Assembly (NCBI GenBank): GCA_963922865.1
Contig: CAWUJK010000003.1
Location: 1,947-65,946 of the forward strand
Origin: an uncultured bacterium
GTDB lineage: Bacteria > Patescibacteriota > Gracilibacteria > BD1-5 > UBA6164
Length of the DNA stretch: 64,000 bases
Direction: 5' to 3'
How positions within the stretch are numbered: the stretch's first letter is position 1; every line of letters begins with the position of its first letter. The translations under genes were made by a program, and so were the position numbers. Positions 8,297 to 50,628 of the stretch are shown here, in pieces. The notes beneath the pieces are model-generated. The model did not search any database. It was not told the origin of the DNA and saw only the letters and a list, made by a program, of their open reading frames with translations.

Positions 8297-8307
8297 ATTT
8301 TATAATT

Positions 8308-9547: not shown

Positions 9548-9555
9548 AATATATT

Positions 9556-10872: not shown

Positions 10873-10909
10873 ACTTATATTTTTAAAATTTATTTTTGCT
10901 TATATTCTA

Positions 10910-11797: not shown

Positions 11798-11920
11798 ATA
11801 TTTTATTATATGCACAAGAAATTATATAAACAAATAAAAAATATCAAATTTTTGTTTGACAAAAAATAAATAATATATACACTGAGTATATATTATATTA
11901 ACCTCTAATAAAAATATATT

Positions 11921-12550: not shown

Positions 12551-12589
12551 ATTTTCTTGAAAAAATTTGCATTAGAAAAAAAAATCGTA

Positions 12590-12771: not shown

Positions 12772-12794
12772 AATTTAATAATTAAAATTTTTTT

Positions 12795-14597
12795 ATGCTA
12801 AGAACTCATAAATGTGATGAACTATCCAAAAAAAATATTTGAGAAAAAGTAACCCTATCAGGTTGGGTAAGTAATAGAAGAGATCATTGATGAATAATTT
12901 TTATAGACCTAAGAGATAGATATTGATTAACTCAAATCGTTTTTGATCCAGTAGATAATAAAGAAACACATAAAATAGCAGATAGCTTTAGAAGTGAATT
13001 TGTTATAAAAGCTATATGAACAGTAAGAGCAAGACCAGAATGACAGGCTAATCCAAATATGCGTACATGAGAAATAGAAATAATTATTGATAATTCAGTA
13101 GAACTTTTATCCAAATCAAAAACACCCCCATTTGAAATTGATTGACACGGTGAACTAGCTTGAGAAGAGATAAGATATAAACATAGATATATTGATTTGA
13201 GAAGACCAAAAGCGCTAGAAAACATTAAATTTAGATCAAAGTTTTTAAATCTTACAAGAAACTGGTTTTTAAATAGAGAATTTTTAGATGTACAAACACC
13301 AATATTTACAGTTAGCTCACCAGAATGAGCAAGAGATTTTGTTATACCATCTAGATTACACCCAGGTAAATTTTATGCCCTACCACAAGCACCACAGCAA
13401 TATAAACAGTTATTAATGGTATGAGCAATAGATAAGTATTTTCAAATAGCACCATGTTTTAGAGATGAAGACCCTAGAGCTGATAGACACGCGTGTGAAT
13501 TTTATCAAATAGATTGTGAAATGTCATTTGTGCAACAAGAAGATATTTTCAAATTAGTAGAAGATTATTTTTTTCATATAATACCAGAGCTTAGCACAAA
13601 AAAAATCATGGATAATAAGTTTTATAGCATGAGTTTTAAACAATCAATGGAAACATACGGTGTAGATAAACCAGATTTAAGATATGATATGAAACTAATA
13701 GATGTAGCATCTATTTTTGCTAAATCAACAAATGAAATATTTTCAAAAATAGCCAATGACACACAAAACAATAGAATAAAAGCATTAAAAGTTCAAAAAT
13801 GAGATGAAATATTTTCTAAATCACAAATGAAAAATTTTGAGAAATATGTTAGACAATTCTGAGCACAATGACTTGGTTATTTTCAAATGACAGAAGAATG
13901 ACTCAAATGACCATTAAATAAGTTTTTTTCTCAAGAAGACCTAAAAGAAATAATAAAAACAACCCAACTTGAAATTGGAGATGTAGTATTTTTTTGAGCC
14001 TGAGATAAACAAACAGTGCTCAACTATATGTGAAAATTTAGGATACATCTAGCAGAGTTAATTGACGAAATAAAATCTTGACAATTTATAGACAAGAACA
14101 TGTTATCGCTTTGCTGGATAACTGATTTCCCAATGTTTGAAGAAAATGAAATAACAAAAAAAATAGATTTTTGACATAACCCTTTTTCTATGCCAAAATG
14201 ATGAATCAAAGAATTTGAAAAAGAAAATTTACTAGAAATAAATTCAGTACAATACGATTTAGCATGTAATTGATTTGAGATATTATCATGATCAATTAGA
14301 AATCATGATATAGATTCTTTAGTTAAAGCTTTTGAAAAAGTAGGTAGAACAGAAGAAGAAGTTAAAGAAAAATTTTGAGCAATGTATGAAGCATTTCAAT
14401 ATTGAGTACCACCACACTGATGATTTGCAATATGAATGGATAGACTAATAATGATATTAAAAGATGAAGACAATATAAGAGAAATTTATGCTTTTCCTAA
14501 ATCAGGAAAAGCTCAAGATGCTATGATGAACGCTCCAGCAATAATAGAAGAAAATCAATTAAAAGAATTAAGTATAGAAACAACACAAGAAAATTAA
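12795..14597 (+). CDS. aspS: aspartyl-tRNA synthetase, bacterial type (600 aa)
   Basis: Class II motifs are present: [35 protein letters not shown] and GGFAIGMDRLIM. It joins track ORF 13521..13802 in the same frame. Confidence 0.95.
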
Positions 14598-14601
14598 AAA
14601 A

Positions 14602-14635
14602 ATAAGTCAAAACATTTGTTTTGACTTATTTTTTT
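14602..14635 (+). terminator. intrinsic terminator after aspS
   Basis: The 13-bp stem ataagtcaaaaca/tgttttgacttat is followed by a T6 run. Confidence 0.8.
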
Positions 14636-14710
14636 AAAAGTTATACTATTATAATAGTAATAAAATATAATATTGCCATATTGATTTAATATATTAATTT
14701 TATTTGTTAT

Positions 14711-15493
14711 ATGAAAGAACTCATAACAAAAATCCAAAAATTATATACATTTTTTCCTTTAAATAATGTTATGTCAAAATCTTTGAAAGATTTTTTGGAT
14801 GTTAAATATAATTATAATTCTAATGCTATTGAATGAACTACTCTTACAGAAAAAGAAACAAGCTTAGTTTTGAAATGAGAAACAATTCCAAGACATAGTT
14901 TGATAGAACATTTTGAAGTTATAAACCATAAAAACGCTTTTAATTTTATATTCGAGTTAACAAACTGATTCAAATATTCCCCAAAAAAATTTGGAGAAAT
15001 ATTTACTGAAAAAAATATATTAAAAATACATAGCTTTATTTTAACAAATATAAATAATGATTTTGCTTGAGTATATAGAAGACAAAATGTAAGAGTAGCT
15101 TTTTCTAACACTATTTTTCCAAGATATGAAAAAGTAGCTACTTTGATGAAGAGTTTTTTTAAAGAAATATTAGAAAAATATGAGAAAATTGATATAGAAA
15201 ATAAATTAGATGTTTTAAAGTTTTGATATGATATACATTTAAAGTTCGTAAAAATACATCCATTTGTTGATTGAAATGGTAGAACGGCTAGATTAATAAT
15301 GAATTTATGGTATTTATATTCATTAAATAATTTAAACATAATATATTTTAAAAATAGAAAAGAATACATTGAAGCTTTAGAAGATTCGCAGAAAAATATC
15401 CAAAAATATTATGATTTTATGAATAAAAACTTTTTACAATTTAAAAACGAGGAATTAAAATTAATTGAAAATAAAGAAATTTATAAATATTAA
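14711..15493 (+). CDS. Fic domain protein (class II, N-terminal inhibitory helix)
   Basis: The Fic motif HPFVDGNGRTARL is present. An upstream SNAIEG matches the (S/T)xxxE(G/N) inhibitory motif. Confidence 0.85.
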
Positions 15494-15499
15494 AAAAAT

Positions 15500-16417
15500 A
15501 TGATAAGAGAACTAAAAATCTGAAAAATAAAATGGATAGATTCAGTATGAGCTAACAAAACGGAGATAGAAAACATACTTACCAAATATAATGCACATGA
15601 ACTTGACATAGAAGCTTGTATAGAATGAAACCAAAAAGCTAGAATAGATAGTTATCCTGAGTATTATTTTTTGATATTTCATTTTCCAAAATATAACCAA
15701 ATAAAAAAAACATATTCACTCAATGAATTTAATATATTTATGGATAAAGATACATTAATAACTTTTAGAGATAATCCATGAATACATATAAATAAAATAT
15801 TTGATCACTATAGTGATATCAAAATAACAACCAAAAAGAAAAACATAAAAGTAACAACATGATATATTCTTTACGAAATAACCCAAGTAATGCTTGAAAA
15901 AATGTTTAGAATAACCAAAAATATAACACTTGATATAAAAACAATTGAAACAAAAGTATTTGATTGAGATGACTCAACTAAACTAGTTAAGCAGATAATG
16001 ATACAAAAAAGAAATATAATTACCCTAAAACATATGTTTAAACCTCAAGTCTCATTATTAAAACAACTAGAAACAGTAGTTAATAAAATATATGCTTGAG
16101 AAATGGAGGTTTATTTTGAAGACCTAGAAGACAAACTTGATCAAATAGTTAGCGAAATAAATATACTAGAAGAATACATAGATTCTATAGAAGATGCTTT
16201 TAAATCAATAGTTGATATAAAAACCAATTCTGTAATTAAAATACTAACATCCTTTTCAGCATTTATGCTACCTCTCACACTTATAACAAGTTTTTATGGT
16301 ATGAATATTAACCTGGAACCATACAATAATATTAAAATAGTTTTATTTTTCTTAACTACAAGTTTATTTTTAATGTGAATTATATATATTTTTCTAAGAA
16401 AAAACTGAAGATTCTAA
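15500..16417 (+). CDS. corA: CorA-family magnesium transporter (305 aa)
   Basis: The C-terminus has two TM helices flanking the YGMN motif (FYGMNINLEP). Confidence 0.85.
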
Positions 16418-16527
16418 CTAATAAAATAAATCATAATTTAAAAACTATTAACCTTAAAATTTTAAAACTTGCCAAATCAAATAAAATCATATAATCCTTA
16501 AGATATAAAAATAATAAAAACTCAAAA

Positions 16528-17919
16528 ATGCTTTGAAAAATAACAATTATAGGTAGGCCAAATGTAGGTAAATCAAGTTTTTTTAATATGTACACATGAC
16601 ATAAAATAGCAATTATTGATGATGAATCTTGAACTACACGCGATATATCAGAATTTGAATATAGTGATAAACAAAATGATTTAAACTATATTTTATCTGA
16701 TTCATGATGACTTGATTTTGAAAATAAAAACGATGAAGTAGCCGAAGACATTATAATAAAAACAAAGCAAGCAATAAATGATTCAGATTTATTAGTTTGG
16801 CTTATAGAATATGATAAATTTACACAACTTGATGAAAAAATACTTAAACTATTAAAAAAGAAAAATTTTAATAATTATATACTGCTTGCCAATAAAGCTG
16901 ATAATGATTCAAAAATAATGGAATCTTGGAATTTATCAGGTTTATGAGAATTAGAATTTTTTCCTATATCAGTATCTCATAATTCTTGAATAAGCAAAGT
17001 AAAAAACTTTGTAGCAAAACATCTAAAAAAACTAGGATTAAATTATAAAATAGAAGATTTAGATGATAGTTTTGTAAAATTAGCAATGATAGGTAGACCA
17101 AATGTGGGGAAGAGTAGTATGATAAATTCTATTGTTGGTTTTGATAGGGTGATGGTAAAAGACTTAGCATGAACAACGCGTGATAGTATTGATACAAAAT
17201 TTCAGTATTCAAGTAAAAATGAGGTACAAAGCACAAACTTTGTTTTAATTGATACAGCTGGAATCAGAAGACTTAGTAAAGTTTGAACTAGAAATGTAGA
17301 AAACTGGTCTGTGATGAGAAGTCAAAGAGCTCTCAAAAGAGCAGATATAGTTGCTGTTGTAATAGACTGATATGAATGAGTTGTTTCTCAAGACTTATCT
17401 ATAATTAATCAAGTTTTAGAAGAAAATAAATGACTTATAATAGTTGTTAATAAATGGGATAAAGTTTTACAAAAACCTTGAATAAACAAAGAAAATATGA
17501 TGAACAGATATATTGACTATCTTCAAGAAAAAATAGAATTTATACCGTGGGTATCTGTTATATTTACTTCAGCAAAAGATAATAAAAGAGTAAATGAAAT
17601 TTTACAAAGAGCCAAAGAAATAAAACAAGAAAGACACAAAAGAGTAAAAACAGCAATATTAAATAATTTTTTAGAACAAGCTACTTATAAACATCCACCA
17701 ACTTGAAATAAAAAATCACATTCTCCGAAAATATATTATTCAACCCAAGCAGATACAAATCCACCAAAATTTGTTTTTTCAGTAAGCAACCCAGATCATT
17801 TTCATTTTTCATATAAAAGATATCTTGAAAATAGAATAAGAGACAATTTTTGATTTGAAGGTACACCTATAATTATTGAATATAGATGAAGATGAAAAAA
17901 TAAATGAAAAACTAAATAA
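16528..17919 (+). CDS. der: ribosome-associated GTPase Der/EngA (463 aa)
   Basis: There are two GTPase domains (GRPNVGKSS twice, SGTTRD/AGTTRD, NKAD/NKWD) and a KH-like C-terminus. The last 38 codons lie in the first 179-bp repeat copy. Confidence 0.95.
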
Positions 17920-17984
17920 TATATGTTTAATACATATATTTTTTATTAGCTTCATGCTCAGCATTATTTTTTCCATAATAAATT
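17806..17984. repeat. 179-bp direct repeat, copy 1 (der 3' end in use; mltG 3' end is a remnant here)
   Basis: It is base-for-base identical to 19471-19649 by my manual comparison. A further 16-nt match, taaataaaaccaatat, lies at 17991-18006 and 19670-19685. Confidence 0.9.
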
Positions 17985-18184
17985 ATTATTTAAATAAAAC
18001 CAATATCTATTTAAAATGAATTTTAGATATAGCTATGTTTAATAATAAATTAAGTTTAAAGTAGTAATAATAGAAAAGAATTGGTAGATTTATTAGACAA
18101 TATAAAAATATTAATTTTTTATTTGATTTTCATTTATCTTTAATATATAATAAACATTGTAATTTACATATAATGTAAAAAGAA

Positions 18185-18751
18185 ATGTCTAAAGATATTT
18201 TAAAATTATCAGAATCATCAAATTCTGTTTTAACATACTGAGAAATCTATTCCATAATAGAGGCAAATACGCCTTTTTATAAAAAAAGAAAAATAGACCT
18301 GTATGAAAAAAAATGAATTTTAAATAGAATAGTAAAATGATTCTACTGCCTAAATTGAAGAAAATACAATAAATTTGAATTAGTAAATAAAATGTACTCA
18401 CCAAGTTACATATCTTTGTTTTCAGCACTTTATAAGCATAAAATGATTTTTCAATTACCAGAATCTGTATTTTTAATATATACAAGAACATTTGAAAAAT
18501 ATATAGACAATACCCATATAGTATCTAAAAGATTAAAGGAAGATATACTTTTAAATATAGATGGCTTAGTTAATAAGGATAACTACACTATAGCATGTCC
18601 TGAAAGAGCTTTACTTGATACCATTTATTTTTATTGAGAAACATATATTGATAATCTTGATATGATAGACTGGGATAAAACTATTAGGCTATCTAAAATA
18701 TATAATAAAAAAACTCAAACAATAGTTAAATCCTACATTTCTAAATTGTAA
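18185..18751 (+). CDS. abiEi: AbiEi-like antitoxin / transcriptional regulator (188 aa)
   Basis: ATG 18185 to TAA 18749. It is a small protein immediately upstream of, and 4 nt from, a nucleotidyltransferase-type toxin. The motif PERALLD is typical of AbiEi C-domains. Confidence 0.6.
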
Positions 18752-18755
18752 ATAA

Positions 18756-19463
18756 ATGAATGCGATGATTAGTAAATTTTCAATAGAAAAACATAGGCAA
18801 ATAATGATTAAACTTCTTATTGCCATCTTTAAAGATGATATTTTATGAAAAAATCTAATATTTAAATGATGAACTGCACTATATTTATTTTATAGTTTAG
18901 ATAGATTTTCTACTGATCTAGATTTTGATCTTATTTTTGAAAATTTTGATAATAAGTTAATTATCTCTAAACTAAAACCAATAATGGAAAAATTTGGTAG
19001 TATCAAAGATTTAAGAATTAAAAAACACACTATTTTTTGACTATTGTCTTATTGAGAACTTGAACACAATATAAAAATTGAGATTTCTAAAAGATGAAAA
19101 AGTTGAGGATTTGAATCAAAAAATCTTTTTTGAAAAAATATATTGACTATGAAGTTATGAGATATGACAGCAAATAAATTGATTGCTCTGACTCATAGAA
19201 ATAAGCTTGCTAATAGAGATATTTATGATATATATTTTATTTTTAATAATAATTTACCAATTAATTATAAACTAATAGAAAAAAATACATGATATAAATA
19301 TAAAGACTTTATCCAAATGACAATAAATTTTTTAAAAAAATTACCAAAAAATTACAACATATTAGATTGATTAGGTTTGGTTTTATCTAATACTCAAAAA
19401 AACTTTGTAAAAAAATTGTTAATAGAGGAAACAATTTCTTACCTTTCAATTGAGCAATCATAA
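18756..19463 (+). CDS. abiEii: AbiEii/DUF1814 nucleotidyltransferase toxin (235 aa)
   Basis: The translation reads LIFKGGTALYLFYSLDRFSTDLDFD, an NTase GG...DxD core. ANRDIYDIYF lies downstream. Confidence 0.7.
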
Positions 19464-19470
19464 CTTTGAA

Positions 19471-19649
19471 TTTTCATATAAAAGATATCTTGAAAATAGA
19501 ATAAGAGACAATTTTTGATTTGAAGGTACACCTATAATTATTGAATATAGATGAAGATGAAAAAATAAATGAAAAACTAAATAATATATGTTTAATACAT
19601 ATATTTTTTATTAGCTTCATGCTCAGCATTATTTTTTCCATAATAAATT
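19471..19649. repeat. 179-bp direct repeat, copy 2 (mltG 3' end in use; der 3' end is a remnant here)
   Basis: It is identical to 17806-17984. It contains a promoterless copy of the last 38 der codons. Confidence 0.9.
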
Positions 19650-20593
19650 TTTCAAGTTTTTACATTATGTAAATAAAACCAATATTTAGTTTCTTGATGA
19701 TTTAGGGTTGAATCTATTGTTATATTATTTGGATTTGATATAGGAGTCTTGGGTAATCATAACATAGTTCTAGTATTATACTGAGATTTTTCATTGATAT
19801 ATTTTGATACTACCATCTTGCATTTTTGACTAGTTAGCTTATGTGCATAACATACTGTTATATCTGCTCAAATTTTCCATCCAGAATTTAATCTTTTTTT
19901 TAATATTCCTGCAACAATTCTCTTTTGGGAATTATTTTTTTCTTCTTTCTCAACTATACTAGCTAAATTAATTAGATCATAAATTTCATCATTTGTTAGT
20001 TTTTTTTCACTTAATATTTTTTCATAAACCTTTTTTTCAAAAGTATCAAGTTGTTTTATTACAAGCTCATTGATTTTTAATGGATATTTTAAAGAATATG
20101 TATCAGGATATAAGTATCATTCTAAACTTATAAAATCCTTATCCAAAAATTTATAAAATTTTGTTAAAGCTTCTATTTTACTATTACTATTTACATATTT
20201 TGTATATTCTCATTTTTTTATTAACCCTTTTTTATATAAATATTCATCTATATCATAAATATTCCATCATTCCAATATAGTTAAATTAATTTGCCTTTCT
20301 GCCATAGGATTTTCTAAAGAACTAATTATATTTTCTATATTAGACTCTTTTTTTATTTCAAACCTTCATACTAAAAGTTTGAAGTTTTCTTTGTTGTTTT
20401 TTATGTAGTGTTTTAAAAAATAATAATTTATATCTAGTTTATTAGCTAGATCTTTAACTGTATTTCAAGGTTTTATATCAATAATTTTTTTTGCATCAAT
20501 TAAAATATCATTTTTAAAATTATGATATGAATAAAACAAATAAGAAATTATAATAATAATCAATACACTAAGTAGCCTTGCTATATTTTTCAT
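19592..20593 (-). CDS. mltG: endolytic murein transglycosylase MltG/YceG (333 aa)
   Basis: It has an N-terminal TM segment. The motifs YLYPDTY, LASIVEKE, YNTRTMLGLPKTPISNP and NAEHEANKK are present. Confidence 0.85.
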
Positions 20594-20640
20594 TTTTAGT
20601 TTTTTATTTTCATTTTTTATCAATTATAGGCTAAAAAAAT

Positions 20641-20686
20641 ATTTAGCAAATAAAAAAGACTTCTTAGTCTTTTTTATTTGCTAAAT
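20641..20686 (-). terminator. strong intrinsic terminator (20-bp perfect stem) overlapping the last codons of the upstream gene
   Basis: The arms are atttagcaaataaaaaagac / gtcttttttatttgctaaat with a 6-nt loop. A U-run follows on the minus strand. Confidence 0.75.
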
Positions 20687-22944
20687 AAAGCAGGTGGAGA
20701 TATTTGTATATTTGGATTGTATTTTATAACTACTGGATATTTTTTTCCTGTTTTTGAATCTATTTGAACATCTCATCACTCTATTCATCTTCTTAGGTAA
20801 TTTAGATCATATTTTTGAGCTTCATCTAAACTACAGCTATTATTACTATATCAAAGATAAAATGGACATTTAGGAGTTTCTAATCTAGAACCTCATATAG
20901 TATTTTCAGAAAATAGTGAACCATTAATATATAATTGTTTTTTCAATCTATCATAATCTCAACCATTATTTGGTGAAATTTCTCACCAATTTGAATTATA
21001 ACTTATAGCTGATTTATCAGTATAAATTATTGATTTTATTTTTTCTACATTAGGATCTATGTATAAATTTCAACCATTTCATTTATCATCTTTTAACACA
21101 ATTAATCATCATAAATTCAAATTTCATTTTACATAAGCATTAGCTCATAAAATAACAATAGTCTTGTTGTCTCATAAATCTCAGTAAAAATTTTTTATTT
21201 TTTTTGTATGATTCCTATAGTCATAAAACTTTATTCTTCAATTCATCAAATCTATTCAATCTTTATCTGTTTTGATATTTTTTATTTTTTCTATAGCATT
21301 TTTTCTTATATCTTTTTTTAGACTAGATTTAGTTATTTCTCATGCTATATTTTTTACATCTTTATTATCTTGTTCATTATTCAAATCTCTTTGTTTTGAT
21401 TTATCTATATTTGTATTTCAGTAAACTTTAATTCCAAAATTATTTTGAGTATTTGTTTCTCATATACTACTTGATCTGTATAAAACAGATTTTCATTCTA
21501 TTTTATATCATATCCAAGATCTTAAATAAACATTTTTTATGTCATCAATAAATCATTTTGATCATGATTTTAATGTAAATAAACTTTTTATTTTATAATT
21601 TGTTGAATTTACAAAACCATTAACAAAACTATTCAAGCTATTTAATATACTTTTTTCTACTGGATTAATTCTAGCTTTTCAGTCAAATTCATCTTTTTTT
21701 TCTCAGTATTTTTGCAAATATATATATTTTGTAGCTTTTGAAACAAGATTATCACTTCAATATTTTGTTACATTTATACTACCAGATTGATTAGCTCATT
21801 CAACTAATCATTTATCTTGATTTCATGAGAAATTTAGATTGTATAATGGTTTAAAATTAAATTTTATATTAGATCATCACAAAACTAGATTTTGTCTATT
21901 TCATATATTTCAATTTATATCAACTTTTACATTATTTATAGTAAATTTATTTCAGTGTATGGTAGGAGAATATATTTTAAAGTTAAAAGGGTACTCTCCG
22001 TTAGATGATTTTAGAGAATCAAAATTGTTATTTTTTGTTAGTTTATTTGTATAATTTTTATCATTTGGAGTACTTAAGTATATTCAATCTCATATATTAC
22101 TATATTGGTTTCTTCTCAATTTATTTTCAACATCAAATTTAAAATCGATAGTTCTTTTTATAGCTATAGCTGGTATTATTTGATTTCAATAGATATCTTT
22201 AATTATTGCTTTTAACTCATGTACTATTCAGTTTGCTGATTTTCATGAAGTAAAGTCTATAGCTGAATTAAATTCTAGTTTTCCTAGTTTATTACTATTA
22301 GAATATACATTGTATTTATAGGTTTTTGGTAATCAAGCTATACAGTTTTCAGCTTCATCACAAACTTTATTTAATTCTAAAGAATATTCTCTATAAGATC
22401 AACTTGTCCTATCATTATCAACTTTTTTTATGTTTATATTGAATGATTTACCAGATAAATTTATATTATCCATTTTGTTTTTATTATCAAAATTTTCTAT
22501 TTTAGCTTTAAAAACTCATACTCAAGACTGATTTATTCAATAATTTATAGCAACATTAAATTTATCTATTGCCAAAACATTTCATCATAAGCTAGAAGCC
22601 TTTATTGAAGGTGGATCATCATCTCTTCTTTTACAATAAACTTTGTACTGACTTCATAAGTTAATTATCTTTGATGCGAATCTTTTATCAGGACAATTAA
22701 AATTATATCATTTGTTATAAGGTCAATACCAATCTCAAGAGTAATAACCATGATATTCGCATCTAAAACTTCATGAACTAGGTTTATTATTTGATATTGA
22801 ACTAGAGATAGCTTTTTGACCACTATTATTATTTGTAGTGTGACACGCTACATTATTTTTATTCCAACTTTTCCATAAAGCAAAGCTTTGATTTGGTAAA
22901 AACACTAAAACTATCATGACAATTAAACATATTTTTTTATTCAT
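20674..22944 (-). CDS. large secreted hypothetical protein (756 aa)
   Basis: The N-terminus MNKKICLIVMIVLVFLPNQSFA looks like a signal peptide. The N-terminal region is Cys-rich and the rest is Asn/Gly/Lys-rich. Start and stop are in the same frame under code 25. Confidence 0.7.
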
Positions 22945-23156
22945 AGTATTTTTAAATTATTTTTTATTCAATCCTATTATGTAATAGCTAAGCATATATT
23001 AATATTATCCCATAAATTTTAAAAAAAAGCAACTATTGAAATTTAAAAAGTTTTTAACATTTTTTGCTATTAAAAATAGCATTTTTTTTTGATTTTTGTT
23101 AATTAATAAATATATTATTTGTAATGTAATTTTATATAACTTAAAAAAATTGACCA

Positions 23157-23735
23157 ATGGAAGCTTTTTTAAAAAAAATTGTAGATTGAAATAAGTTTGA
23201 GTTAACTATTGATACTAAGATTTTTAGTAAAGATTTAGTATTAAAGACTTCTTATAATTTTTTAGATTTATGATATTTTTATTTTAAGATGTCTTGAAAC
23301 AATATTGTATTACAGCTTACAAAAAAATCTTGAGATAAAAGAGATTTAGAAGATATCATTTGAGATTTTTCAAGCTCTCTACTTGAGACTTATTTGAGAG
23401 ATAAACTAGAGCGTGATAATAAATCTATCAGAGAAGCTATAGTAGAAAAAGCTATTAATGGTCCTTTGGATGCTAATAATTTTGTTTCTCTTGACACTGA
23501 TAAATGACAAGAAGCTTGAGAACAAACACAGCAAAATCAAATAGACTTTGATAAAGATATAGATGAAATATTAAAAGAGATAGAAAATGATCCAGAGCTA
23601 AAAATAGACGAAGAAGAGATAGAAAAAATATTAAAAGAAATAGAAGAAGAAAGTGAAAGCGAAGCCTCAGCAAAACCTTCTATTAAAATTGATCCAAATG
23701 CTGTAAAAAATGCTAAGAAAAATTTTAAAAAATAA
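23157..23735 (+). CDS. hxsD: HxsD-like protein with acidic C-terminal extension (192 aa)
   Basis: The frame was scanned and is clean. The N-terminal ~100 aa end in SSLLETYLRDKLERD, resembling the LLNDYxLRE signature I recall for the HxsD family. It sits directly upstream of hxsB. Confidence 0.6.
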
Positions 23736-23756
23736 ATTAATATATACTAAGTATTT

Positions 23757-23954
23757 ATGGAAAAACAATATAAAATAGATGGTGATATATATAGTAATGA
23801 AATTATAAATGATGCGATTTCTAGTTTTTCTTGAGTTGCTGATATAAAATATGAAAATAATATGATTTCTATCAGTGCAAGTAATACTTCTGAAGTAGAA
23901 GAGATTTTCAATGAATTTATGAATTATTGTATACATTTAATTAATGAGATATAA
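23757..23954 (+). CDS. small HxsD-like or unknown protein (65 aa)
   Basis: The frame is clean. It ends 2 nt before the hxsB ATG. The C-terminus reads EEIFNEFMNYCIHLINEI. Confidence 0.5.
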
Positions 23955-23956
23955 AA

Positions 23957-25426
23957 ATGTTAGATATAAAAAAAATAAATAATGCAAACACTGATAAAAT
24001 ATGATTTTTTAGGTTCAAAAAATTTGATAAAAATAAGTATTTGATAACAAATGATGCTTGAAAATTTGCTTTTTTGAGTTTGAAAGATTTTGATATTTTT
24101 CTTTCTTGAGAAAAGTTAGAAAAATTAAAAAATTATGATGATTTATTAAAAAAAGGTTTTATCAAAACAGATGATTATAAAGAAAAAATGATATGAAGTG
24201 TTGCACAAAAAAATCATTTTGTATGAGTTGGTCCTACTTTACATATGATAGTCGTTACTCTTAGATGTAATCATAAATGTGAATATTGTCATGCAGCGGT
24301 TGCTCCTATGAGCGCTAAGGAGTTTGATATGAGTAAAGATACAGCTAAAAAAATTGTAGATACTATATTTTATACTAATTCTCCTGCTTTGACAATAGAG
24401 TTCCAAGGGTGAGAAGCTTTAGTTAACTACGAAGTTGTCCAATTTATAGTTGAATACTCTAAACAAAGGGCAGAGCATCTAAAAAAAGAGCTGTCTTTAG
24501 TTATGGTTTCAAATCTTACTTTGATGAGCGAAGAAAAACTGAGTTGGTTACTTGATAATGGTGTAGACGTTTGTACCAGTCTTGATTGAGATGAATTAAC
24601 TCATAATAATAATAGGACTTGATTTGATTGAAATTCTTTTGAAAAAGTTACTTATTGGATGAAAAGAGTTAACGAGGAAAAACAAAAAAGAAATATGTGA
24701 AAAGTTTGAGCCCTTTTAACTGTTACTAAAAAAACTATTCCAAATTATAAAAAAATAATAGATTCTTATATAAAATTGGGTCTTGATTGAATATTTCTTA
24801 GATGGTTAAATCCTTATGGTTTTGCAGCTGCTCAGTTGGATAAACTAGCTTATGAGTCAGATGATTGGATAGATTTTTATAAAAAATCTCTTGATTATAT
24901 TATAGAAATAAATAAAAAATGAACTTTTTTCAAAGAGAGTATAACTTCTGTTTATTTAATGAAGATTTTTAATCCTGTAGATCCGGGTTTTATGGACATA
25001 AGAAGTCCTAGTTGAATAGCTATTTGAGGTGTGGCATATAATTATGATTGAAAAATATACGCTTCTGATGAATCAAGGATGCTTGCTAGGATGTGAGATG
25101 ATGCGTTTTTAATGAGTGATTGAAGCTGAACTCCAGAAGAGAGTTATAGAGAAATGATAAATAGTGATGTAACCAAAGCTTCTGTGCAATCTAGTTGTTT
25201 AGATTGACTTCCTTGATACAATGAGCATGTCTATAAGCCTTATATTGGTGTTGATATCATTCATAATTATAAAGTTGCCTGAAGTTTGTTTAACCCTATA
25301 AAAAAGGATGAAAAGATGAAAATACAAATAGCTATACTTGATTATATATTTGAAAAACTTCAGGATAGTGAAGTTGAGAAAATTTTTATGAGTTGGATAG
25401 CTTGAAAAAATTGAGAAAATGATTAG
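23957..25426 (+). CDS. hxsB: radical SAM maturase, HxsB-like (489 aa)
   Basis: The whole frame was scanned. The triad is CNHKCEYC and the SAM motif is EFQGGEA (second G = TGA). The long C-terminal domain and the position next to the HxS-repeat peptides match the His-Xaa-Ser system architecture. Confidence 0.8.
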
Positions 25427-25444
25427 TATATAATATATAGATAT

Positions 25445-25795
25445 ATGCCGCATAAAAAAAAGAAAATTTTTCCAAAAATTAAAAAGAAATTAAAATGATT
25501 TTTAACTGATGAGAGTTGAAAAATTAGTAAAAAAGATGCATTGGGTTTAGCTGCTGGGAGTGTTTTATTGTGAGGTGCTGGAGAGGTATGAGCTCGAAAT
25601 TATTGAAATCATATAAGTGGTTGATTTAATCTACAAAGTGGTCACCTAAATGCATCTGCTTCTGCTATTTGTAATCATGCTAGTTGACTAATTAATGGGC
25701 ACTATAGTGTTACTCCTAGTGGAACTGCTAAAATTTCTGGACATGCTAGTCATGGTAGTCATGGTAGTCATGGTAGTCATGGTAGTAGGTGGTAG
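25445..25795 (+). CDS. hxsA: His-Xaa-Ser repeat precursor peptide 1 (116 aa)
   Basis: I translated it codon by codon. It has a Lys-rich leader. The core contains HIS, HAS, HYS, HAS and four HGS triplets, and ends HGSHGSHGSHGSRW. Confidence 0.85.
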
Positions 25796-25836
25796 TATAT
25801 CTTATTAGAACATTGTAATATCTTAATTTTGTTTAT

Positions 25837-26316
25837 ATGTGAAATAAAAAAACCAAAATTTTTCCAAAAATTAAAAAGAAATTAAAATGATTTTTAACTG
25901 ATGAGAGTTGAAAAATTAGCAAAAAAGATGCTTTATGATTGGCTACTGGTAGTATTTTATTAAGTTGAGCTGATGAAATTAGCGCTGGTCATTCAAACCA
26001 TGGTAGTCATAGTAGTTGACCTGGTTGACATTTGAATCAAGGTCACGCTAGTTGAAATTTAAGATCGTGACATGTTAGTGCTAATCCTGGTGCAGTAACT
26101 AAGACATCACATGCTAGTTGAATTGTGAATGGTCATTATAGTTCAACCCCTAATTGATGAGTTTATGATCCTGCTCATGCTAGTGGTTATGGTAATTGAT
26201 GACATTTAAATCAGTGAGCTGTTAATTGAAGACTTCATGCTAATCATGGTAATCATAGTAATCATGGTAGTCATGCTAGTCATGGAAGTCACGGTAGTCA
26301 CGGTAGTAGATGGTAA
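25837..26316 (+). CDS. hxsA: His-Xaa-Ser repeat precursor peptide 2 (159 aa)
   Basis: I translated it codon by codon. The leader is almost identical to that of peptide 1. It has about 12 HxS triplets plus HxN variants and the same HGSHGSHGSRW C-terminus. Confidence 0.85.
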
Positions 26317-26328
26317 ATTAAAGATTTT

Positions 26329-27267
26329 ATGCAAAATATTGATTTTAAAAATGTTAGTTGATTAGAAATTTCTTTATTGTATAAATGCAATGTAGGATGT
26401 GAGTTTTGTCACTTGTGAAATTTGAAAGAAGAACATGAACAAAGGTTATCCAAAGAGCAAGTATTTGATATATTAAAAAATTGATATGAACAATGAAAAA
26501 GATCAGTAATTTTTACTTGATGAGAGCCTACTTTGGAAGTAAACCTGCCAATTTATATACAAAAATCTAAAGATTTATGATTCCAACATATAAGAGTCCA
26601 CTCTAATGGTTTTGCTTTTCAAAATTATAGTTTTGTAAAAAATTTACATGATAAATGATTGACCTGAGTTACTATATCAGTTCATTGATACAAAATTATT
26701 CATGATTGTATAACAAAAACACCATGAAGCTTTGATGTTATATTTAAAAGTTTTATAAATTTTGAAAAAATAATTCTTAAAGATGATAGTTTTTCTGTTG
26801 ATACAAATACTATTATTTGCAGAAAAAATTATAAGTATTTAAAACAGCTTTTGATTTTTTTAATGAAATTTAGTATAAAAAGAAGAATGTTTACCTATAC
26901 ATTTAATACCGTCTTGTATCATGAGTTTTGAGATCTAAAAAGTATTATAGTTTCTTATGAAGAGTTGAAAAATCCCATAAATAAATTGCTTGAATTTTGT
27001 GAATTTAAGAAAATAAAAGATTTTGTATTAGATTCTATACCTTATTGTTTGATAAATGAAAAATATTGGCATTTTATAGAAGAAAATTATCTACCAGATA
27101 AACATTTTTATTTACTTGATTATTATGATTGAAATGATAATACTTACAATGATGGAAAAATAAAGTATATTGAATGTAGAGATTGTAAAAAAGATAAACA
27201 ATGTACATGATTTTCTGAGGATAATAATTTACTTTATTGAAAAATGAATTTTAATATTTTAACTTAG
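26329..27267 (+). CDS. hxsC: radical SAM maturase, HxsC-like by position (312 aa)
   Basis: The frame was scanned. The triad is CNVGCEFC. The SAM motif TGGEP is encoded as ACT TGA TGA GAG CCT at 26515-26529. The C-terminal tail is CRDCKKDKQC. Confidence 0.75.
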
Positions 27268-27272
27268 ATACT

Positions 27273-27959
27273 ATGAAAAAAATAATTATTCTATTCTTGC
27301 TTCTATTTTTTATCTTTTCTTGCTCCATATTTTGAGGCTGAAATAAAGATAATAATATAACAAAAACTAAAGAACTTAATGTTCAAAATTTAGTTTCAAC
27401 GTGATCTGAGCAATCAAATACCAATTCTACTAACGTACAAAAAGTTGATGTACAAAAAATTGATGAACAAAAAGGAATTCAGAGAGAAAAAAAATTGTAT
27501 TGAAATACTTTATCTGATATTATTAAAAACCCAAAAATTGATTTACATAAAAAGGAAAATCCAAATAAACAAGAATATTATTCTGAAAGGCTTAATGTTT
27601 ATGAGTTTTTTGTTTTTTGTAAAGGACTTATTGGTGTGGATATTTTAGATAAAGATTCTTTCATTGATTATTTAGATTTAAGAGTTCTTCATGATTATTT
27701 AAAAAAGAATAATTTTTCTTTAAATAAAAAGGATGAGCTTTTAAAATTTTTACAAAAAATAGATGGTGATTTCAATGAAGTTAACTCATTATTATACATA
27801 GAGTGAAAAATAACTAAAAAAGAATTATTTTGAAGTTTTACTAGTTCTTATCCTGATAGTATTTTGTATTTTAAAGCTTTGAAATTCAAGATAGAAAATA
27901 TTTTATCAAAAGAAAAATGTGAAAATATAGTTTTAGATAGTTGAATTAAACTAGATTAA
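27273..27959 (+). CDS. lipoprotein embedded in the maturase cluster (228 aa)
   Basis: The N-terminus is MKKIIILFLLLFFIFSC, which carries a lipobox. Confidence 0.65.
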
Positions 27960-32015: not shown

Positions 32016-33335
32016 ATGAATAAAAAAAAGCTAGATTTTCGGAAATTTATGACATATAAAATGTTATCACTAAATTCATCTTTTGTATTTCCATTGGAGT
32101 TTTTTTTCAAACCTAATTTCAAACCAAATATATCTGAGATATCATCATACTTAAATAAAAAAAATAAGTGACTATATATTCATATACCTTTTTGTATTAA
32201 AATTTGTGATTATTGTGGTTGCTATAAACAAAAAGTATCAAAAAAAGATGATTTAGATAAATATGTTGATTATTTAATAAAAGAACTAGAGATTTATTAT
32301 GAGTTGAATAATTCAAAAAAACTAGAATTTACAACTATAATGTTTTGATGATGAACCGCTTCTATCCTAACGGTAAAGCAACTTGATAAATTATTTTATT
32401 GACTTTATAAATTAATAGATAGAACTAATCTCAAACAAATAAGTTTTGAATCTTCTATTTTTACATTGAATAATTCTAAAATAGATATTTTAAAAAAATA
32501 TGATGTTGATAGAATTTCTATTTGAATACAAAGCTTTGATAAAACTGTTTTGGAAAAGAATAATAGAGTATATATGGAATATTATAAGATAAAAAATATA
32601 GTAAACTATATAAAAAAATCATGAATTTTAGTTCAGGTTGATCTAATGATATGAATAAAATGACAAAATGAAAAAAATTGTATTAAGGATTTTAAAAAAA
32701 TGATAGAACTTTGAGTTGATAGCTACACAATGAACTATTATATAGCACATGATTATGCTAATTTTTCTGATACAAAAAAGGGATTGAATTTAAAGGAAAC
32801 AATGAAAAAACTAGACCATAAATATAATTTTATAGCAAAACATAAATGATCATATTTACTCCAAGAAGATTTAGTTTTCAATGATTTTAATTATTTTGTT
32901 GTATGACTTTGAGTTTGAGCAACTAGTAATATTTGAAATAAATATATTTATAGAAAAACCAATTTTTTAAATTATTATAAAAATATTGATAACAAAAAAA
33001 TAATTGCTGATAGCTGAGTTGTTGCTCCAACTAATTTTCCAGAGATAAAGTACATGTTTGAAAAATATAAAGACTGAGATATTGAGTTTGAAAACTTCAA
33101 AAATACTTTTTGAAAAGATATAAAGATTTTATTTAAAAAAGAATTGGAATTTTTAGCTTTAGAGGGTATTATAGATATAGGTGAAACTAATTTAAAATTT
33201 TTGAAAAATAAATATGAATCTAGAATATATCTAAATGTTTTCTTAGAAAATTTTTTTGAAAGTAAAAAAGATATAGAAATTCCAGTTTTGGATAAACAAT
33301 TCCATTTAGATTTAACATGACTTATATATGAGTAA
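32016..33335 (+). CDS. HemN/HemW-like radical SAM protein, paralog 2 (439 aa)
   Basis: The motifs are LYIHIPFCIKICDYC, FGGGTAS and DVDRISIGIQS. It starts 1 nt after the paralog 1 stop. Confidence 0.8.
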
Positions 33336-34002
33336 TATTATAAAATATGATAAAAATATAAAAATATCTTTATCTAACTGAAAAATTGTCAAAAAACATA
33401 AGTATTTTAATAATTATATAAGAGAGAAAAAAGCATACTTATTTTTTTCAAAAAATAATTTAGAAAATTTTAATATACCAAAAATAATTAAGTTTTATGA
33501 TAATAAAAAAATTATTGAGATGGAAAATATAGATTGATCTTACACTTGAGAAATACTAAAGTCTAAAATCAAAAATAATTTAGAATTTGCTATTAAGCTC
33601 TTTAAGAATTTAAATTCTTGACTTAAAAGTTTACATAATTTTGAAATCAGAGATTGATTTGATATAGATGAAATATTTCATTTTGATAGAAATAATCCAT
33701 ACATGAAGAATGTTTTTAAAAGTTTTGGTATACAACATTATCCTATTGAAAAGTGTTTTGTCCATTGAGATTTAACATTTGATAATATTATGTATAAAGA
33801 TGATAAATTATACTTTATTGATTTTACTGCTTTTTGTATCTCTGATAAATATTATGATTTTGTTTTTTATTATTGATTTGCTGAATTGTTAAGTTTGGAT
33901 ATATTATTAAAGTTAATAAAAATATTTTATTGAGATAAATTTAATTATAACAAATTTGAAACTTATGTTATATTGAAATGAATTAAAAGTTTAGATTTTT
34001 AA
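33328..34002 (+). CDS. small kinase of the aminoglycoside/choline-kinase (APH) fold (224 aa)
   Basis: The motifs are HGDLTFDNIMY and LYFIDFT (catalytic loop and DFx-like). It overlaps the upstream gene by 8 nt (ATGAGTAA). Confidence 0.6.
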
Positions 34003-34051: not shown

Positions 34052-34939
34052 ATGAAAAATAATAATAAAAATGCTTTTGAATGTAGTGCTGTTACAAAAT
34101 GAATTGAGATAGAATTGACCAGCTATTGTTCTTTTAAATGCATAATATGTCCTAGAGAAAAGCTCCCTAAGTATCATTTTTTAGATTTTGATAATTTCAA
34201 GAAAATAATTGATTTAGTTAAACAATGAAATTATACAGAAATAATGGTATGTGGTTTATGAGATGCATTTTTGCATAAAGATATAAATAAATTTTTGGAT
34301 TATTTGTTTTTAAAACTTCCAAATATAAATTTTTTTATAATGACTAAATGACAAAGTATACAAAATAAACACCTTGAAAAAATATCTGAACTTCAAAAAA
34401 AATGATATAAAGTTTCCTTGACCTTTTCTATATTTTCTTTAAATAAACCTATTTATAACTATCTAACCTGATGAGATTTTTTTGATAAATTTATGCAAAT
34501 ATTTAAAAAAGTTATTTCTATGAATATAAATTATTCTTTGGAGTTTTTGCTTTCAACTTTGACCCTAAAAGAGTTAGATAGTTTCAAAAAATTTGCTTAT
34601 AAATTATGAAAAACAGATTATTGAATTTCACTTGTACATAATTGGTCCTGAGAGATACCACATTCTATCCATAAAAAACTTTTTAATGAAAAAAAATTAA
34701 AATGATTTTATCAAAAAAGAAAAAGTAATGATTTATGTGAGGCCATAAAATATGATTATCTTTACATAGATTCTTATTGAGATGTTTTCCAATGCTCTTT
34801 GAATGAATTACATAGAAAAGGACTTTTATGAAAACTATGAGATTATAGCTTAAAAGAATTCTTAAATAAAAAAAGAATGCTAAATTATAAAAAAACTTGT
34901 GAATGATGTTTTTATTTAGACTTTAAAACATTTTGTTAA
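34052..34939 (+). CDS. radical SAM protein (295 aa)
   Basis: The triad is CSFKCIIC, followed by VCGLGDAF. The C-terminal Cys residues are CEA...QCS...TCEGCFYLDFKTFC. Confidence 0.75.
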
Positions 34940-35700
34940 TGAACATAGCAATAATATGACTTTGAAACCACTGAAAAAAATATATAAATTTTTTTGAAAA
35001 AAAAGATTTAGAAGTTTTTTGAGCTTGTAAGACAAGAAAAACAAAAAATTATATAGAAAGTAATTATCATATTAAAGTATTTTTAGATTATAAAGAATTG
35101 ATAAAAACTCATAGACTTGATTTTATTGTTTTAGCTCTACCTCAAGAAATCCAATGAAAAATAGCTTTAAATATATTAAAAAAAGTATCTAAAAAAACCA
35201 AGATTCTTATTGAATTACCAGTTTGTGATTCAATCTCTGATAGAGAAGCTTTAGAAAAGTTTGAAAATGTATGATTTTTTATTGAAGAATATTATAGTTT
35301 ACTTTCAAGTTTTTTGAGAAAAATTGATATTTCAAATATATCTAGTATAAATGTTAGTATGTATGTGTCAGCTGAAGATTTTTGAGATGAAAAATCTCAA
35401 AATATTGATAAAATTCATTTAATGAATAACTTCGTATGACTTTGAATTGATTATAATATTTTTGATATAAAAATATATAAACATGATGATATAAATGTAT
35501 ATTTTGATATAAATTTTTCTTATTTGTGAAAAAAAATTAATTATAGCTTTTTTGAAAAAAAGATTTTAAAAATTTGAAATAAACAATTTATAGATAATTT
35601 TAATTTTGATGAAGTCATAAACAGTTTACTTGTTGATTTTTCACCTTCTTCTAAATCAAAAAAAGATTTTAATAGACTATTTAAAGAAATTAATTGATAA
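34939..35700 (+). CDS. NAD(P)-binding Rossmann oxidoreductase, Gfo/Idh/MocA-like (253 aa)
   Basis: The N-terminus is MNIAIIGLGNHGKKY. The start overlaps the upstream stop (TAATG). Confidence 0.55.
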
Positions 35701-35704
35701 AAAT

Positions 35705-37807
35705 ATGAAATATATTTGAGCAAATTTTATCACTAGCATAAAAGATTGGAGTTGTGTATTAATAGAGAATTGAAATTTAACTTGAGTTTCTTTGGACAAG
35801 TTAGATTCTTTTAAGTTTTCTCCCTATTTATCAGATCTTATTTTATATTCTATTCAATCAAAAAAGCAAGGAAAACAAAGCTCTCTTTTCCCTAATTTAT
35901 ATGAAAAAGATTTAATCAAAATCACTAAAAGTGCTAGAGATACTTTTAAAAACTATTTTAGCTTAACAAATTTTTATGAAAGTATTAATTTTGAAGGAAA
36001 AAATATAATAAATTACAAAAATAAACATGCTTATTATCATGTCTTATGAACCCACTTTTCAAGTCCTTTCAATGATTCTGTGTGAATTTGTATAGACTAT
36101 CTATGATACAATGATTTTTGAAATCATCAAGTTCAAACTATATGGAAATGTGGTAAAAATAATATTGATTTATTAGATGATTTTGATACAAGCTTAACTA
36201 TAAACAGGTGAATATGATTTACTTATTCTATTTTTGCTGATTTTTTTGATATTTATAAATATGATATTGCTTTTTTAGTCCCTTATTGAAATAAAAATTT
36301 ATTTTCTTGAATAGAATTATATGAATATAAAGATGGAAATGTTTTTTTGAAAAAAGATTTCTTGTATTGAGTTTCTCTACAAGCTGACTTATTACCTAAA
36401 ACTTTTTATGCATCAATAGAAGAAATACCATGAAATATGGATGCTATATATTCAAATATAAAAAGAATATTTAACATAAATGACAAACAAATAAATGATG
36501 CACATAAAGATTTGAAAAAATGAATTATAGCAAATTTACTAGCATATGTTCATGATGAAACTAGAAAAGCTTGTTTGTTCTTAACTAATAAGGCCTATGA
36601 ATTATGAAATTCTAAAAATTTAACTATATCAGGTTGGTTAGCATCAAATCATTTGCTTTGTAATGAAATAGTTAATAAATCTAGGTTTAAAAATTTTTAT
36701 TTTGAAGTTTCTCCAAACTATACTGGTATATCAGTTTGAGCTGCCTTTGAGTTATACAAAAAAAGTATATATTTAGAAAAAACATGATATTGAAAGCAGT
36801 ATTCAAATGAGGATATTTTCATAACTTTATCAAATTATTCAAATTATTTAAGTTTTGATTTATTAAGTGATATTGAGCAACAAAATAATCTAATCATAGA
36901 TAAATTGAAAAATAAAAAAATCATTTGATATTTTAAAGCAGGAAGCGAATTATGACCAAGAGCTCTATGAAATAGAAGTATATTATCAATTTGTGATTGT
37001 GAAGATTTATCTGATAAAATTAGATCTATTAAAAAAAAGCAAAACTGGAAAAGCTTTTCAATCTCAATTTTAGAAAATGAGCTTTGAACTTACTTTGAAG
37101 ATAATCATAAATCTATTTTTATGAGTTTATCATCGAAATTAAAAGATAAGTATAAAAAAGATTTTGTCTGAGTTAATTTTGATAACAATATTATCAGATA
37201 CCAAAGTATTTGAGAAAATAATAATAGATTTTTATATGATTTATTATGTAGTTACTCTAAAGTAACATGAAAGCCTTTCTTATTGAATACATCTTTAAAT
37301 TCATTTAAACAATCTATTGTTGAATGCCCTAAACAAGCTATAGAGCTTTTTTTATCCACAGATATAGATTATTTAGTGTTATGAGATTTTATTGTATCAA
37401 AAGATAAAACTTATGAAAAATTTAGCTTTGATTATGAAAAAGTAAAAACTCAAAAAAACATAGATTATTTCTCAACTAACAAAGATAGTTATAAGAACTA
37501 TGTTTCTATAAAAACTATTTTAGAAAAATTATTTTTTAAGTGATGCGAATTTAATATTAGTAACATAAAATATTTTGAAACAACTATTGATTTAGATTTT
37601 TTTTGAAATAAAATAAGTATTGAAAAGTTAAATAGTTGAAAGAAATATGATATGAAAACTAATAATGTTTGAATAAAAATTTTTAAACTTGAAAGTAGAA
37701 AAGAATTAATTATTTTTTACAAAAAATTAAAGCTATTGGATTATAAATTTGAATCTATATTTTCTAAATGAGAGTATTTTTTAAAAGATTTAACTAATTA
37801 TTTATAA
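35705..37807 (+). CDS. NodU/CmcH-family carbamoyltransferase paralog, divergent at several motifs (700 aa)
   Basis: It keeps GSELGPRALGNRSIL. It has NTSLNSFKQSIVECP and SGWLASNHLLCN where paralog 2 has NTSFNVSREPIVETP and GGVALN. Confidence 0.7.
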
Positions 37808-37814
37808 ATATATT

Positions 37815-49497: not shown

Positions 49498-50628
<1,131 letters not shown>

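Follow-up and report, generated by a model that had tools for sequence, protein, structure and literature searches.

Paired candidate HxsA-type peptides in a divergent Gracilibacteria form of the His-Xaa-Ser maturation system

What do two small adjacent genes encode when their products begin and end almost alike but differ in a core rich in His-x-Ser triplets? The question is raised by pepA and pepB (the names used here), which lie at 25445-26316 of a 64,000-nucleotide (nt) stretch of DNA, here called the window, from an uncultured Gracilibacteria bacterium (assembly GCA_963922865.1, contig CAWUJK010000003.1, positions 1,947 to 65,946). A preliminary description of the window had proposed real coding genes for twin precursor peptides, with a conserved leader and tail, a diversified HxS core and UGA codons read as glycine. 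This observation proved correct and is mostly explained by an existing system: with a probability of about 0.8, pepA and pepB are paralogous HxsA-type substrates of a Gracilibacteria His-Xaa-Ser (HXS) maturation system. The peptides could be placed there because they are flanked by hxsD, hxsB and HxsC-like radical S-adenosylmethionine (radical-SAM) genes, a decisive piece of context that the preliminary description had not noted. The kind of system is already known, with family models that are years old and a function shown in 2026, and the locus is a divergent Gracilibacteria version of it, not a new kind. This lineage-specific form is unnamed in the databases and lacks several features that are important in E. 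coli; literature searches of a kind that should have found it turned up no paper on a Gracilibacteria form of HXS peptides. Its real interest lies in an HxsB without SPASM cysteines, a missing HxsC orthologue, the leader architecture, an apparent conversion tract between the twins and an island of radical-SAM genes.

The genes of interest are all on the forward strand, in the order hxsD, hxsD-like, hxsB, pepA, pepB, HxsC-like, and are separated by gaps of 2-41 nt, an operon-like arrangement. The hxsD gene (23157-23735, 192 amino acids, aa) scored 56.9 bits against TIGR03976 (cut-off 50), and the Pfam family PF27806 HxsD is recorded for it in the public record. It is followed by a small hxsD-like gene (23757-23954, 65 aa), which reached 41.9 bits with the NF038315 'HxsD-like protein' model (cut-off 41); a BLASTP comparison of this open reading frame (ORF) with HxsD showed no similarity, and it was the hidden Markov model of the HxsD-like family that detected it. 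A gene of the same type, of 61-64 aa, sits between hxsD and hxsB in two other loci (L014 and L015). The radical-SAM maturase gene hxsB (23957-25426, 489 aa) scored 486.8 bits against TIGR03978 (cut-off 370), covering positions 3-466 of the 466 in the profile, and carries the CX3CX2C motif at C104/C108/C111; other radical-SAM models gave much lower scores for it (YhhB, 50.7 bits; PapB, 105 bits). Downstream of the peptides, the HxsC-like gene (26329-27267, 312 aa) encodes a radical-SAM protein with CX3CX2C at residues 20-27 and a C-terminal C...CxxCx5C. An orthologue with 32-34% identity lies directly after the peptide gene in two related genomes (L005 and L008).

Translated with table 25, pepA (25445-25795, forward strand) and pepB (25837-26316, forward strand) encode peptides of 116 and 159 aa, the lengths first reported. 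The pepA gene starts 18 nt past the end of hxsB, so that HxS-repeat substrates stand within the operon, and the best NCBIfam matches of both peptides were the HxsA3 and HxsA4 models, at scores under their thresholds. The HxsA3 alignment spans the leader (residues 9-81 against profile positions 2-69), and for pepB it reached E = 5e-10.

Each peptide begins with a leader of 50 residues (25445-25594 in pepA, 25837-25986 in pepB). It contains a hydrophobic segment with a 13-residue Kyte-Doolittle mean of 1.5-1.7, preceded by a stretch of net charge +8 or +9, and ends with V-G-A or I-S-A at residues 48-50. The hydrophobic segment and this site may form an export and cleavage signal, and the Lys-rich segment could be a docking site for the maturase. 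A twin-arginine translocation (Tat) signal was also considered, as S-K-K-D-A-L resembles S-R-R-x-F-L and three relatives carry RR; the RR is one position off the KK pair, and only the description 'signal-like' was kept. A six-frame search with code 25 found no further copies of the leader in the window.

Beyond the leader, the common block NGHYS(V/S)TP(S/N)G and the ending HGSHGSHGSRW are present in both peptides, while the cores differ, with 8 HxS triplets in pepA against 12 in pepB, as had been described, and with 1 and 6 HxN. When the core residues were shuffled, the mean number of HxS was 1.7 for pepA and 3.05 for pepB, and none of the 20,000 shuffles reached the observed counts. Each tail is built of 9-nt tandem repeats of CATGGTAGT (His-Gly-Ser), of which there are 5 copies in pepA (25742-25786) and 8.1 copies in the His-x-Ser/Asn array of pepB (26235-26307). 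The likeness of the two tails is partly a property of this tandem repeat.

A genome scan with HxsB found at least eight metagenome-assembled genomes (MAGs) of Gracilibacteria/Patescibacteria (L001-L008) with HxsB proteins of 54-79% identity. Each of them contains hxsD and hxsB, with hxsD upstream, plus one peptide of the family, whose gene is usually directly downstream of hxsB, and the hxsD-hxsB-peptide triad was found in further metagenome contigs as well. A metagenome scan with the peptide profile gave at least seven short loci among the matches listed. A database search with the profile retrieved 158 relatives with the same leader, VNGH motif and HGS tails, none of them with a Pfam domain and every source-given name being 'hypothetical protein'. 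Among the 120 relatives listed, of the 158, the S/T-K-K motif occurs in 107 and VNGH in 99. The family leader reads K-I-F-P-K-[IL]-K-K-K-L-x-x-F-L-T-D-E-S-G-K-I-[ST]-K-K-D-A-L-G-L and continues with a Gly/Ala-rich hydrophobic stretch, a [V/I/A]-x-A site and a variable core rich in His, Ser, Gly and Asn. In the family alignment VNGH is invariant, usually as VNGHYS (itself an HxS), and the His-Gly-Ser repeats end in W or GGWC. Relatives keep their HxS repeats, and the family is conserved as coding sequence with a bias towards synonymous substitutions, so that neither outcome named in the preliminary description as refuting was seen: pepB and its L014 orthologue differ by 0.91 synonymous (dS) and 0.17 nonsynonymous (dN) substitutions per site, a dN/dS of 0.19, with 0.18 in the leader and 0.195 in the core. 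The peptide family is under purifying selection, and for the leader this agrees with what had been supposed.

Loci with the standard genetic code in Verrucomicrobia/Lentisphaerota (L009-L011) contain a short HxsA whose signal peptide is of the ordinary kind and whose HxS repeats are C-terminal. Because these proteins share the signal and the HxS tail, 'signal plus HxS tail' can be regarded as a general design.

Two classes are dominant at the C-terminal end of the family. Among the 120 relatives listed, about 27 end in HGSHGS-R-W or Q-W and about 39 in S-G-G-W-C, and the two peptide copies of L015 fall in different classes. One relative of 304 aa (P0105) continues after the leader and His/Ser core into a C-terminal domain of some 150 aa, which starts at a Cys, ends in ...VHN and by eye resembles a Hint/intein-type autoprocessing domain; many other members of the family end in GGWC at the point equivalent to the start of this domain.

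How far does the locus agree with the HXS systems described so far? The family was defined by the TIGRFAM/NCBIfam models TIGR03976-TIGR03979, credited to Haft and Basu in PMC9062424. In E. coli, HxsA, HxsB, HxsC and HxsD form an antiphage system that blocks the entry of phage DNA (Li et al., Nat Commun 2026; PMC13128918). There, a change of +8 Da in HxsA was localised to SHRSS and, by genetic evidence, requires HxsB, HxsC and HxsD; the matured HxsA reaches the periplasm by export, and it depends on the signal peptide, the peptidoglycan-binding domain and each of the five HxS repeats. Known HXS systems are found in Pseudomonadota in 99.7% of cases and have the gene order D-B-C-A in 99.6% (PMC13128918).

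The window shares with the E. coli system the HxsB and HxsD orthologues, both above the curated cut-offs, an operon that begins with hxsD-hxsB, a second radical-SAM gene of the HxsC type within the operon, and a substrate with tandem His-x-Ser and an N-terminal export-type (here signal-like) segment. It differs in its order, D-(D-like)-B-A-A'-C-like, with two substrate genes, and in its host, a code-25 Gracilibacteria bacterium instead of a member of the Pseudomonadota. The E. coli HxsA has at least 214 aa, five repeats and a peptidoglycan-binding domain, whereas the peptides here have 116 and 159 aa, 8-12 HxS, a leader of about 50 aa and no such domain. As in the system defined by Haft, an HxS-repeat protein, paired radical-SAM proteins and a small HxsD occur together and the TIGR03978 and TIGR03976 models are reached; the TIGR03977 (HxsC) and TIGR03979 (HxsA) models are not, and the peptide leader is specific to the lineage. 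Among the NCBIfam variants (HxsA3, HxsA4, HxsD-like NF038315 and HxsC4), the HxsD-like cut-off is reached and the peptides match HxsA3 best, but the peptides and all the HxsC-like proteins score well under the cut-offs, so that the NCBI pipeline would leave them unnamed.

Several observations weigh against the assignment. The peptides are below the curated HxsA cut-offs, with 26.6 (pepA) and 38.9 (pepB) bits for HxsA3 (NF038309, cut-off 65) and 17.3 bits for pepA with HxsA4 (NF038313, cut-off 55), and neither matched HxsA (TIGR03979) or HxsA2 (NF038296) at E <= 0.01. None of the radical-SAM proteins of the window passes the HxsC cut-off: the HxsC-like protein next to pepB scored 63 bits with TIGR03977 (cut-off 267.9) and 85 bits with HxsC4 (NF038332, cut-off 500), and the best HxsC score, 101.7 bits, belongs to a protein encoded 27 kb away (53356-54300). 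HxsC4 is the best match of several radical-SAM paralogues of the window, the highest score being 135. Moreover, the adjacent HxsC-like protein lacks an N-terminal extension of about 80-90 residues that is implied by the E. coli numbering, in which the HxsC cluster cysteines are at 105/108 (PMC13128918). In HxsB, six C-terminal cysteine columns of the Verrucomicrobia/Lentisphaerota proteins are occupied by T/G/Y/H/I/M in all nine Gracilibacteria sequences, and the auxiliary Fe-S cysteines (C399/C402 in E. coli) are likewise absent; the HxsB of the window has five Cys in total, the three of the CX3CX2C motif and two scattered ones. Because all SPASM cysteines are absent, the chemistry of these enzymes may differ. 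A Pfam search of pepA, pepB, the 65-aa ORF and the 228-aa protein described below gave no matches, although the Pfam copy used also missed HxsD (PF27806); the peptides thus show no peptidoglycan-binding or other Pfam domain, the former being required in E. coli. The 2023 version of PADLOC, which is without Hxs models, gave only generic viperin-like radical-SAM matches for HxsB and the HxsC-like protein and no independent defence call. Finally, signal function, cleavage, modification and antiphage activity are for this locus predictions by analogy.

An E. coli-type periplasm is not known from Gracilibacteria, which is a further point against the assignment. Because of this, a role as 'periplasmic gatekeeper' is not literally transferable to these bacteria.

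The working model that we derive from the homology to E. coli is as follows. The genes from hxsD to the HxsC-like gene would be co-transcribed, as their common strand and short gaps suggest, and the peptides are translated with UGA as glycine. The conserved leader, with its near-invariant Lys-rich part, its weakly hydrophobic Gly/Ala-rich part and its [V/I/A]-x-A site, would serve in maturase docking and as an export and cleavage signal. In the cytoplasm, HxsB, HxsD, the HxsD-like protein and the HxsC-like protein could covalently modify His and Ser residues of the HxS motifs, the likeliest targets including the invariant VNGH(Y)S. The leader would then be cut off and the His-rich product would reach the cell envelope, where, as an antiphage effector, it might hinder the entry of phage DNA. 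This last step is the least secure, and an antiphage role of the Gracilibacteria system is held here at slightly under even odds. A scan of 22900-27400 for promoters and terminators was uninformative at 22% G+C, giving 32 promoter-like sites (32.8 expected) and no terminators.

The context mildly favours a defence function. An AbiEi/AbiEii type IV toxin-antitoxin pair (18185-19463) lies 4 kb upstream of hxsD (PADLOC, 98.7 and 190 bits; Pfam AbiEii, 78.5 bits), a gene for an AAA-type ATPase matching the PADLOC candidate system PDC-S01 (504 bits) is located at 49465-50628, inside the radical-SAM island, and what by eye look like toxin-antitoxin cassettes interrupt the locus in L001.

Downstream of the operon, a second context has to be considered. 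The region 27965-54300, mostly on the forward strand with a few reverse-strand genes, contains about 15 further radical-SAM genes, whose link to the Hxs genes is presumed. It includes two HemN-like genes, five more HxsC-like paralogues (starting at 43777, 44647, 45634, 50669 and 53356, none of them above the cut-off), two carbamoyltransferases (35630-39839), an APH-like kinase (33328-34002) and a GFO-type oxidoreductase (34933-35700), as well as unrelated genes such as 52182-53291. Counting the operon, about 17 radical-SAM genes, nearly all on the forward strand, fall within 23957-54300, an unusually dense arrangement. They start at 23957, 26329, 27965 (motif only), 28849, 29800, 30683 and 32016 (the HemN-like genes), 34052, 39839, 41241, 42942, 43777, 44647, 45634, 48500, 50669 and 53356. 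Parts of the island are conserved together with hxsD-hxsB-hxsA in L008 (HxsC-like, rSAM2, rSAM4, GFO and HemN-like genes), L001, L003 and L007.

This island gives weight to the alternative that survives best, namely that the locus makes a secreted, heavily modified ribosomally synthesised and post-translationally modified peptide (RiPP), for example a His-rich one that binds metal or is antimicrobial, used in an episymbiotic or predatory lifestyle and not as an antiphage effector. The N-terminus would then be a classical leader and the island would supply many tailoring steps. RiPP precursor families typically combine a conserved leader with a hypervariable core, and here two precursors share one leader; the radical-SAM, HemN-like, carbamoyltransferase, kinase-like and oxidoreductase genes stand directly downstream and are partly conserved with the triad in L008, L001 and L003, and, unlike the E. 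coli effector, the peptides have no peptidoglycan-binding domain. Crosslinking of His side chains in RiPPs by radical-SAM enzymes is known, as with HtkB and HaaB (PMC11499958), and like the HXS enzymes those of the triceptides (three-residue cyclophanes) as well as HtkB and HaaB act on leader-bearing peptides with repeated three-residue motifs that start with an aromatic residue or His. They belong, however, to other enzyme families, the change in E. coli Hxs is +8 Da, and Hxs products are larger and protein-like. The one Hxs system characterised by experiment serves in defence (PMC13128918), family scans identified no RiPP-type protease or ABC-exporter gene beside the peptides, the 66-109 residues after the leader are long for a diffusible RiPP, and defence-type genes are nearby. 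We regard the RiPP explanation as unlikely, though it is a serious contender.

In prochlorosin-type lanthipeptide loci, one enzyme set serves several precursors whose leaders are nearly identical and whose cores diverge. These loci differ from the present one, which has two copies, unrelated enzymes and a leader identity that comes from one local conversion tract.

An extension of the HXS assignment was also considered, in which the lineage has an expanded system where a hypervariable multi-copy HxsA with a shared leader is processed by the SPASM-less HxsB and up to about 17 clustered radical-SAM enzymes into a heavily modified, His-rich envelope peptide. This is a speculative proposal that we think rather improbable. 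If it were true, core diversification, tail slippage and leader conversion would reflect an arms race with phages or hosts, and the locus would encode an effector of defence or interaction, matured by radical-SAM enzymes, in a bacterium of the candidate phyla radiation (CPR) without a periplasm of the E. coli kind, so that its mechanism would be unlike that of the E. coli 'periplasmic gatekeeper'.

How did the twins arise? The near-identity of their leader DNA was evident in the nucleotide alignment, in which 25463-25539 (pepA) and 25855-25931 (pepB) match at 76 of 77 nt, as first reported. The tract encodes KIFPKIKKKLKGFLTDESGKISKKD, and its sole mismatch, T/C at 25528/25920 (AGT/AGC), is synonymous for Ser; at the peptide level the identity continues past the tract through ...ALGLA. 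Within codons 7-31, only 1 of the 25 codons for identical residues differs synonymously between pepA and pepB, against 8 of 12 in codons 32-48 (Fisher p = 1e-4). The twin dS is 0.92 overall, as large as that between genomes, and 1.13 in the core. Orthologous leaders differ synonymously at 6-13 of the 19-24 identical-residue codons in the same codons 7-31, and because of this variation, codon bias or constraint at the nucleotide level does not explain the identity, which is not a product of protein-level selection either. Because the twins are synonymously saturated outside codons 7-31, the near-identical leader is read as a gene-conversion tract: the simplest reading is that the 77 nt are a recent conversion patch on an old duplicate pair or on an acquired second type.

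The core of pepB shares 82% identity with the only peptide of L014 and 65% with the core of pepA, whereas the HxsB proteins of L014 and the window share only 58% identity; because of this, the two paralogue types appear to be old or to have been exchanged. Two peptide copies were also found in L015/L016, with a membrane-protein gene between them and one copy truncated in L016 (the frequency of twin copies is based on about 17 loci). The L015 pair shows no conversion tract, with nine synonymous differences in 29 identical-residue leader codons, and this divergence rules out concerted evolution of the leader as a general rule. As twins exist in L015/L016 without a tract, copy number is dynamic and the conversion local. 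In the history that we propose, old paralogues with different cores would have had 77 nt of their leaders re-homogenised by a recent conversion, while the His-Gly-Ser tails would expand and contract as 9-nt tandem repeats.

The preliminary description had instead suggested a recent tandem duplication, with purifying selection keeping the leader and C-terminal tag while the cores diversified fast. The two genes adjoin on one strand and have a common architecture, and the leader is strongly conserved in amino-acid sequence across genomes, as that history would predict. It fails on the synonymous sites, with a dS of about 0.9-1.1 outside codons 7-31, the rest of the leader included: selection on the protein cannot hold synonymous sites, at which orthologues vary freely. 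Together with the closer similarity of pepB to a peptide of another genome than to its own twin, this makes a recent duplication quite improbable.

It could also be argued that pepA and pepB encode His-rich proteins of an ordinary secreted or surface type, metal-binding ones for example, that are not substrates of the neighbouring radical-SAM enzymes, for which the signal-like N-terminus and the resemblance of the His-Gly-Ser tail to metal-binding tags could speak. This is very improbable in view of the strict adjacency to hxsD-hxsB in every Gracilibacteria locus examined, the HxS-repeat proteins that adjoin HxsB in the Verrucomicrobia/Lentisphaerota loci also, and the HxsA models as best family matches of the peptides.

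All these translations depend on the genetic code. The window has a G+C content of about 22%, and its ORFs of at least 80 aa total 23,503 aa with TGA as a sense codon but 3,382 aa with TGA as a stop. Where Gracilibacteria HxsB has TGA, the aligned residue in standard-code orthologues (Lentisphaerota, Kiritimatiellae and Akkermansia) is Gly in 203 cases and Trp in none, and these columns show the same residue profile as those of GGN-encoded Gly. TGA codons also fill the radical-SAM motifs GGEP and GGGTP, and TGA and GGN interchange at the same positions among peptide orthologues. UGA encodes glycine (code 25), as follows from the Gly columns in the orthologues and the TGA within the radical-SAM motifs; the nearest HxsB loci are in Gracilibacteria/Patescibacteria MAGs, which fits a code-25 Gracilibacteria host. 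No tRNA-Gly(UCA) was found in the window, where tRNA and Rfam scans gave only a tRNA-Cys. Many of the core glycines were rightly described as UGA-encoded, TGA accounting for 7 of the 20 Gly codons in pepA and 16 of the 30 in pepB. That the ORFs are read-through artefacts, or that UGA means Trp (code 4) and the proteins are wrong, as the public pepB record P0002 with its Trp might suggest, can be dismissed as next to impossible given the collapse of coding with TGA as a stop, the Gly columns, the TGA/GGN alternation and the dN/dS of 0.19 for pepB.

The statement that annotation pipelines would truncate or miss the peptides applies to those using code 11; in the ENA assembly ERZ23492089, whose scaffold_4 (85.7 kb) includes the window, both genes were called. 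The stored pepB protein (P0002) has Trp at every UGA position, and many public translations of the family (P0002, P0005 and others) likewise carry Trp at UGA codons, following code 4 and not 25. Such translation turns the Gly-His-x-Ser repeats into Trp-rich sequences, which probably weakens detection of the family.

Other features of the region were noted. The gene after the HxsC-like gene (27273-27959, forward strand) encodes a protein of 228 aa that starts with a hydrophobic, lipoprotein-like segment and has no family match, and its membership of the system is uncertain. Membrane or lipoprotein-like proteins of 228-265 aa adjoin the peptide genes in the window and in L001 (14783-15472), L014 (3083-3793) and L015 (9197-9994), and often end in a Cys-containing K/V-C-K-x-F motif; their pairwise identity is only 15-22%, too low to settle homology. 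Within the island, a gap of 584 nt (47916-48499) contains no ORF of at least 40 aa with code 25 and no Rfam or tRNA match.

In the closest relative genome, L001 (OZ245768.1), positions 4510-8554 are syntenic with 5004-8877 of the window, up to the gene at 8281-8877, and synteny resumes at hxsD; because of this, about 14 kb (8882-23156) is extra in the window with respect to L001. A tRNA-Cys (11723-11797) and the AbiE pair fall in this extra DNA, as does a secreted-looking protein of 756 aa. In L001, two small genes (9485-9998) replace the hxsD-like gene, and about 2.8 kb of small cassettes (11534-14294) separates hxsB from the peptide gene; by eye, these resemble HEPN/nucleotidyltransferase, HicAB-like and AbiEii-like fragments of toxin-antitoxin type. 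A 33-aa remnant of the first cassette gene is found in the same place in L014 (2487-2588).

The locus and its relatives, in at least eight Gracilibacteria genomes and among 158 proteins, represent a conserved, divergent HXS branch in ultra-small, code-25 CPR bacteria, while a function for HXS was assigned only in 2026 and almost solely in Pseudomonadota (PMC13128918). The branch changes features that are important in E. coli: it has no peptidoglycan-binding domain, no auxiliary-cluster cysteines in HxsB, and short paralogues in the place of HxsC. As a practical point, public translations with Trp for Gly hide the Gly-His-x-Ser repeat. The pepA and pepB peptides could serve as small, repeat-rich substrates for working out the His/Ser modification and, if the Gracilibacteria system still works, it would narrow down which parts of HXS chemistry are essential.

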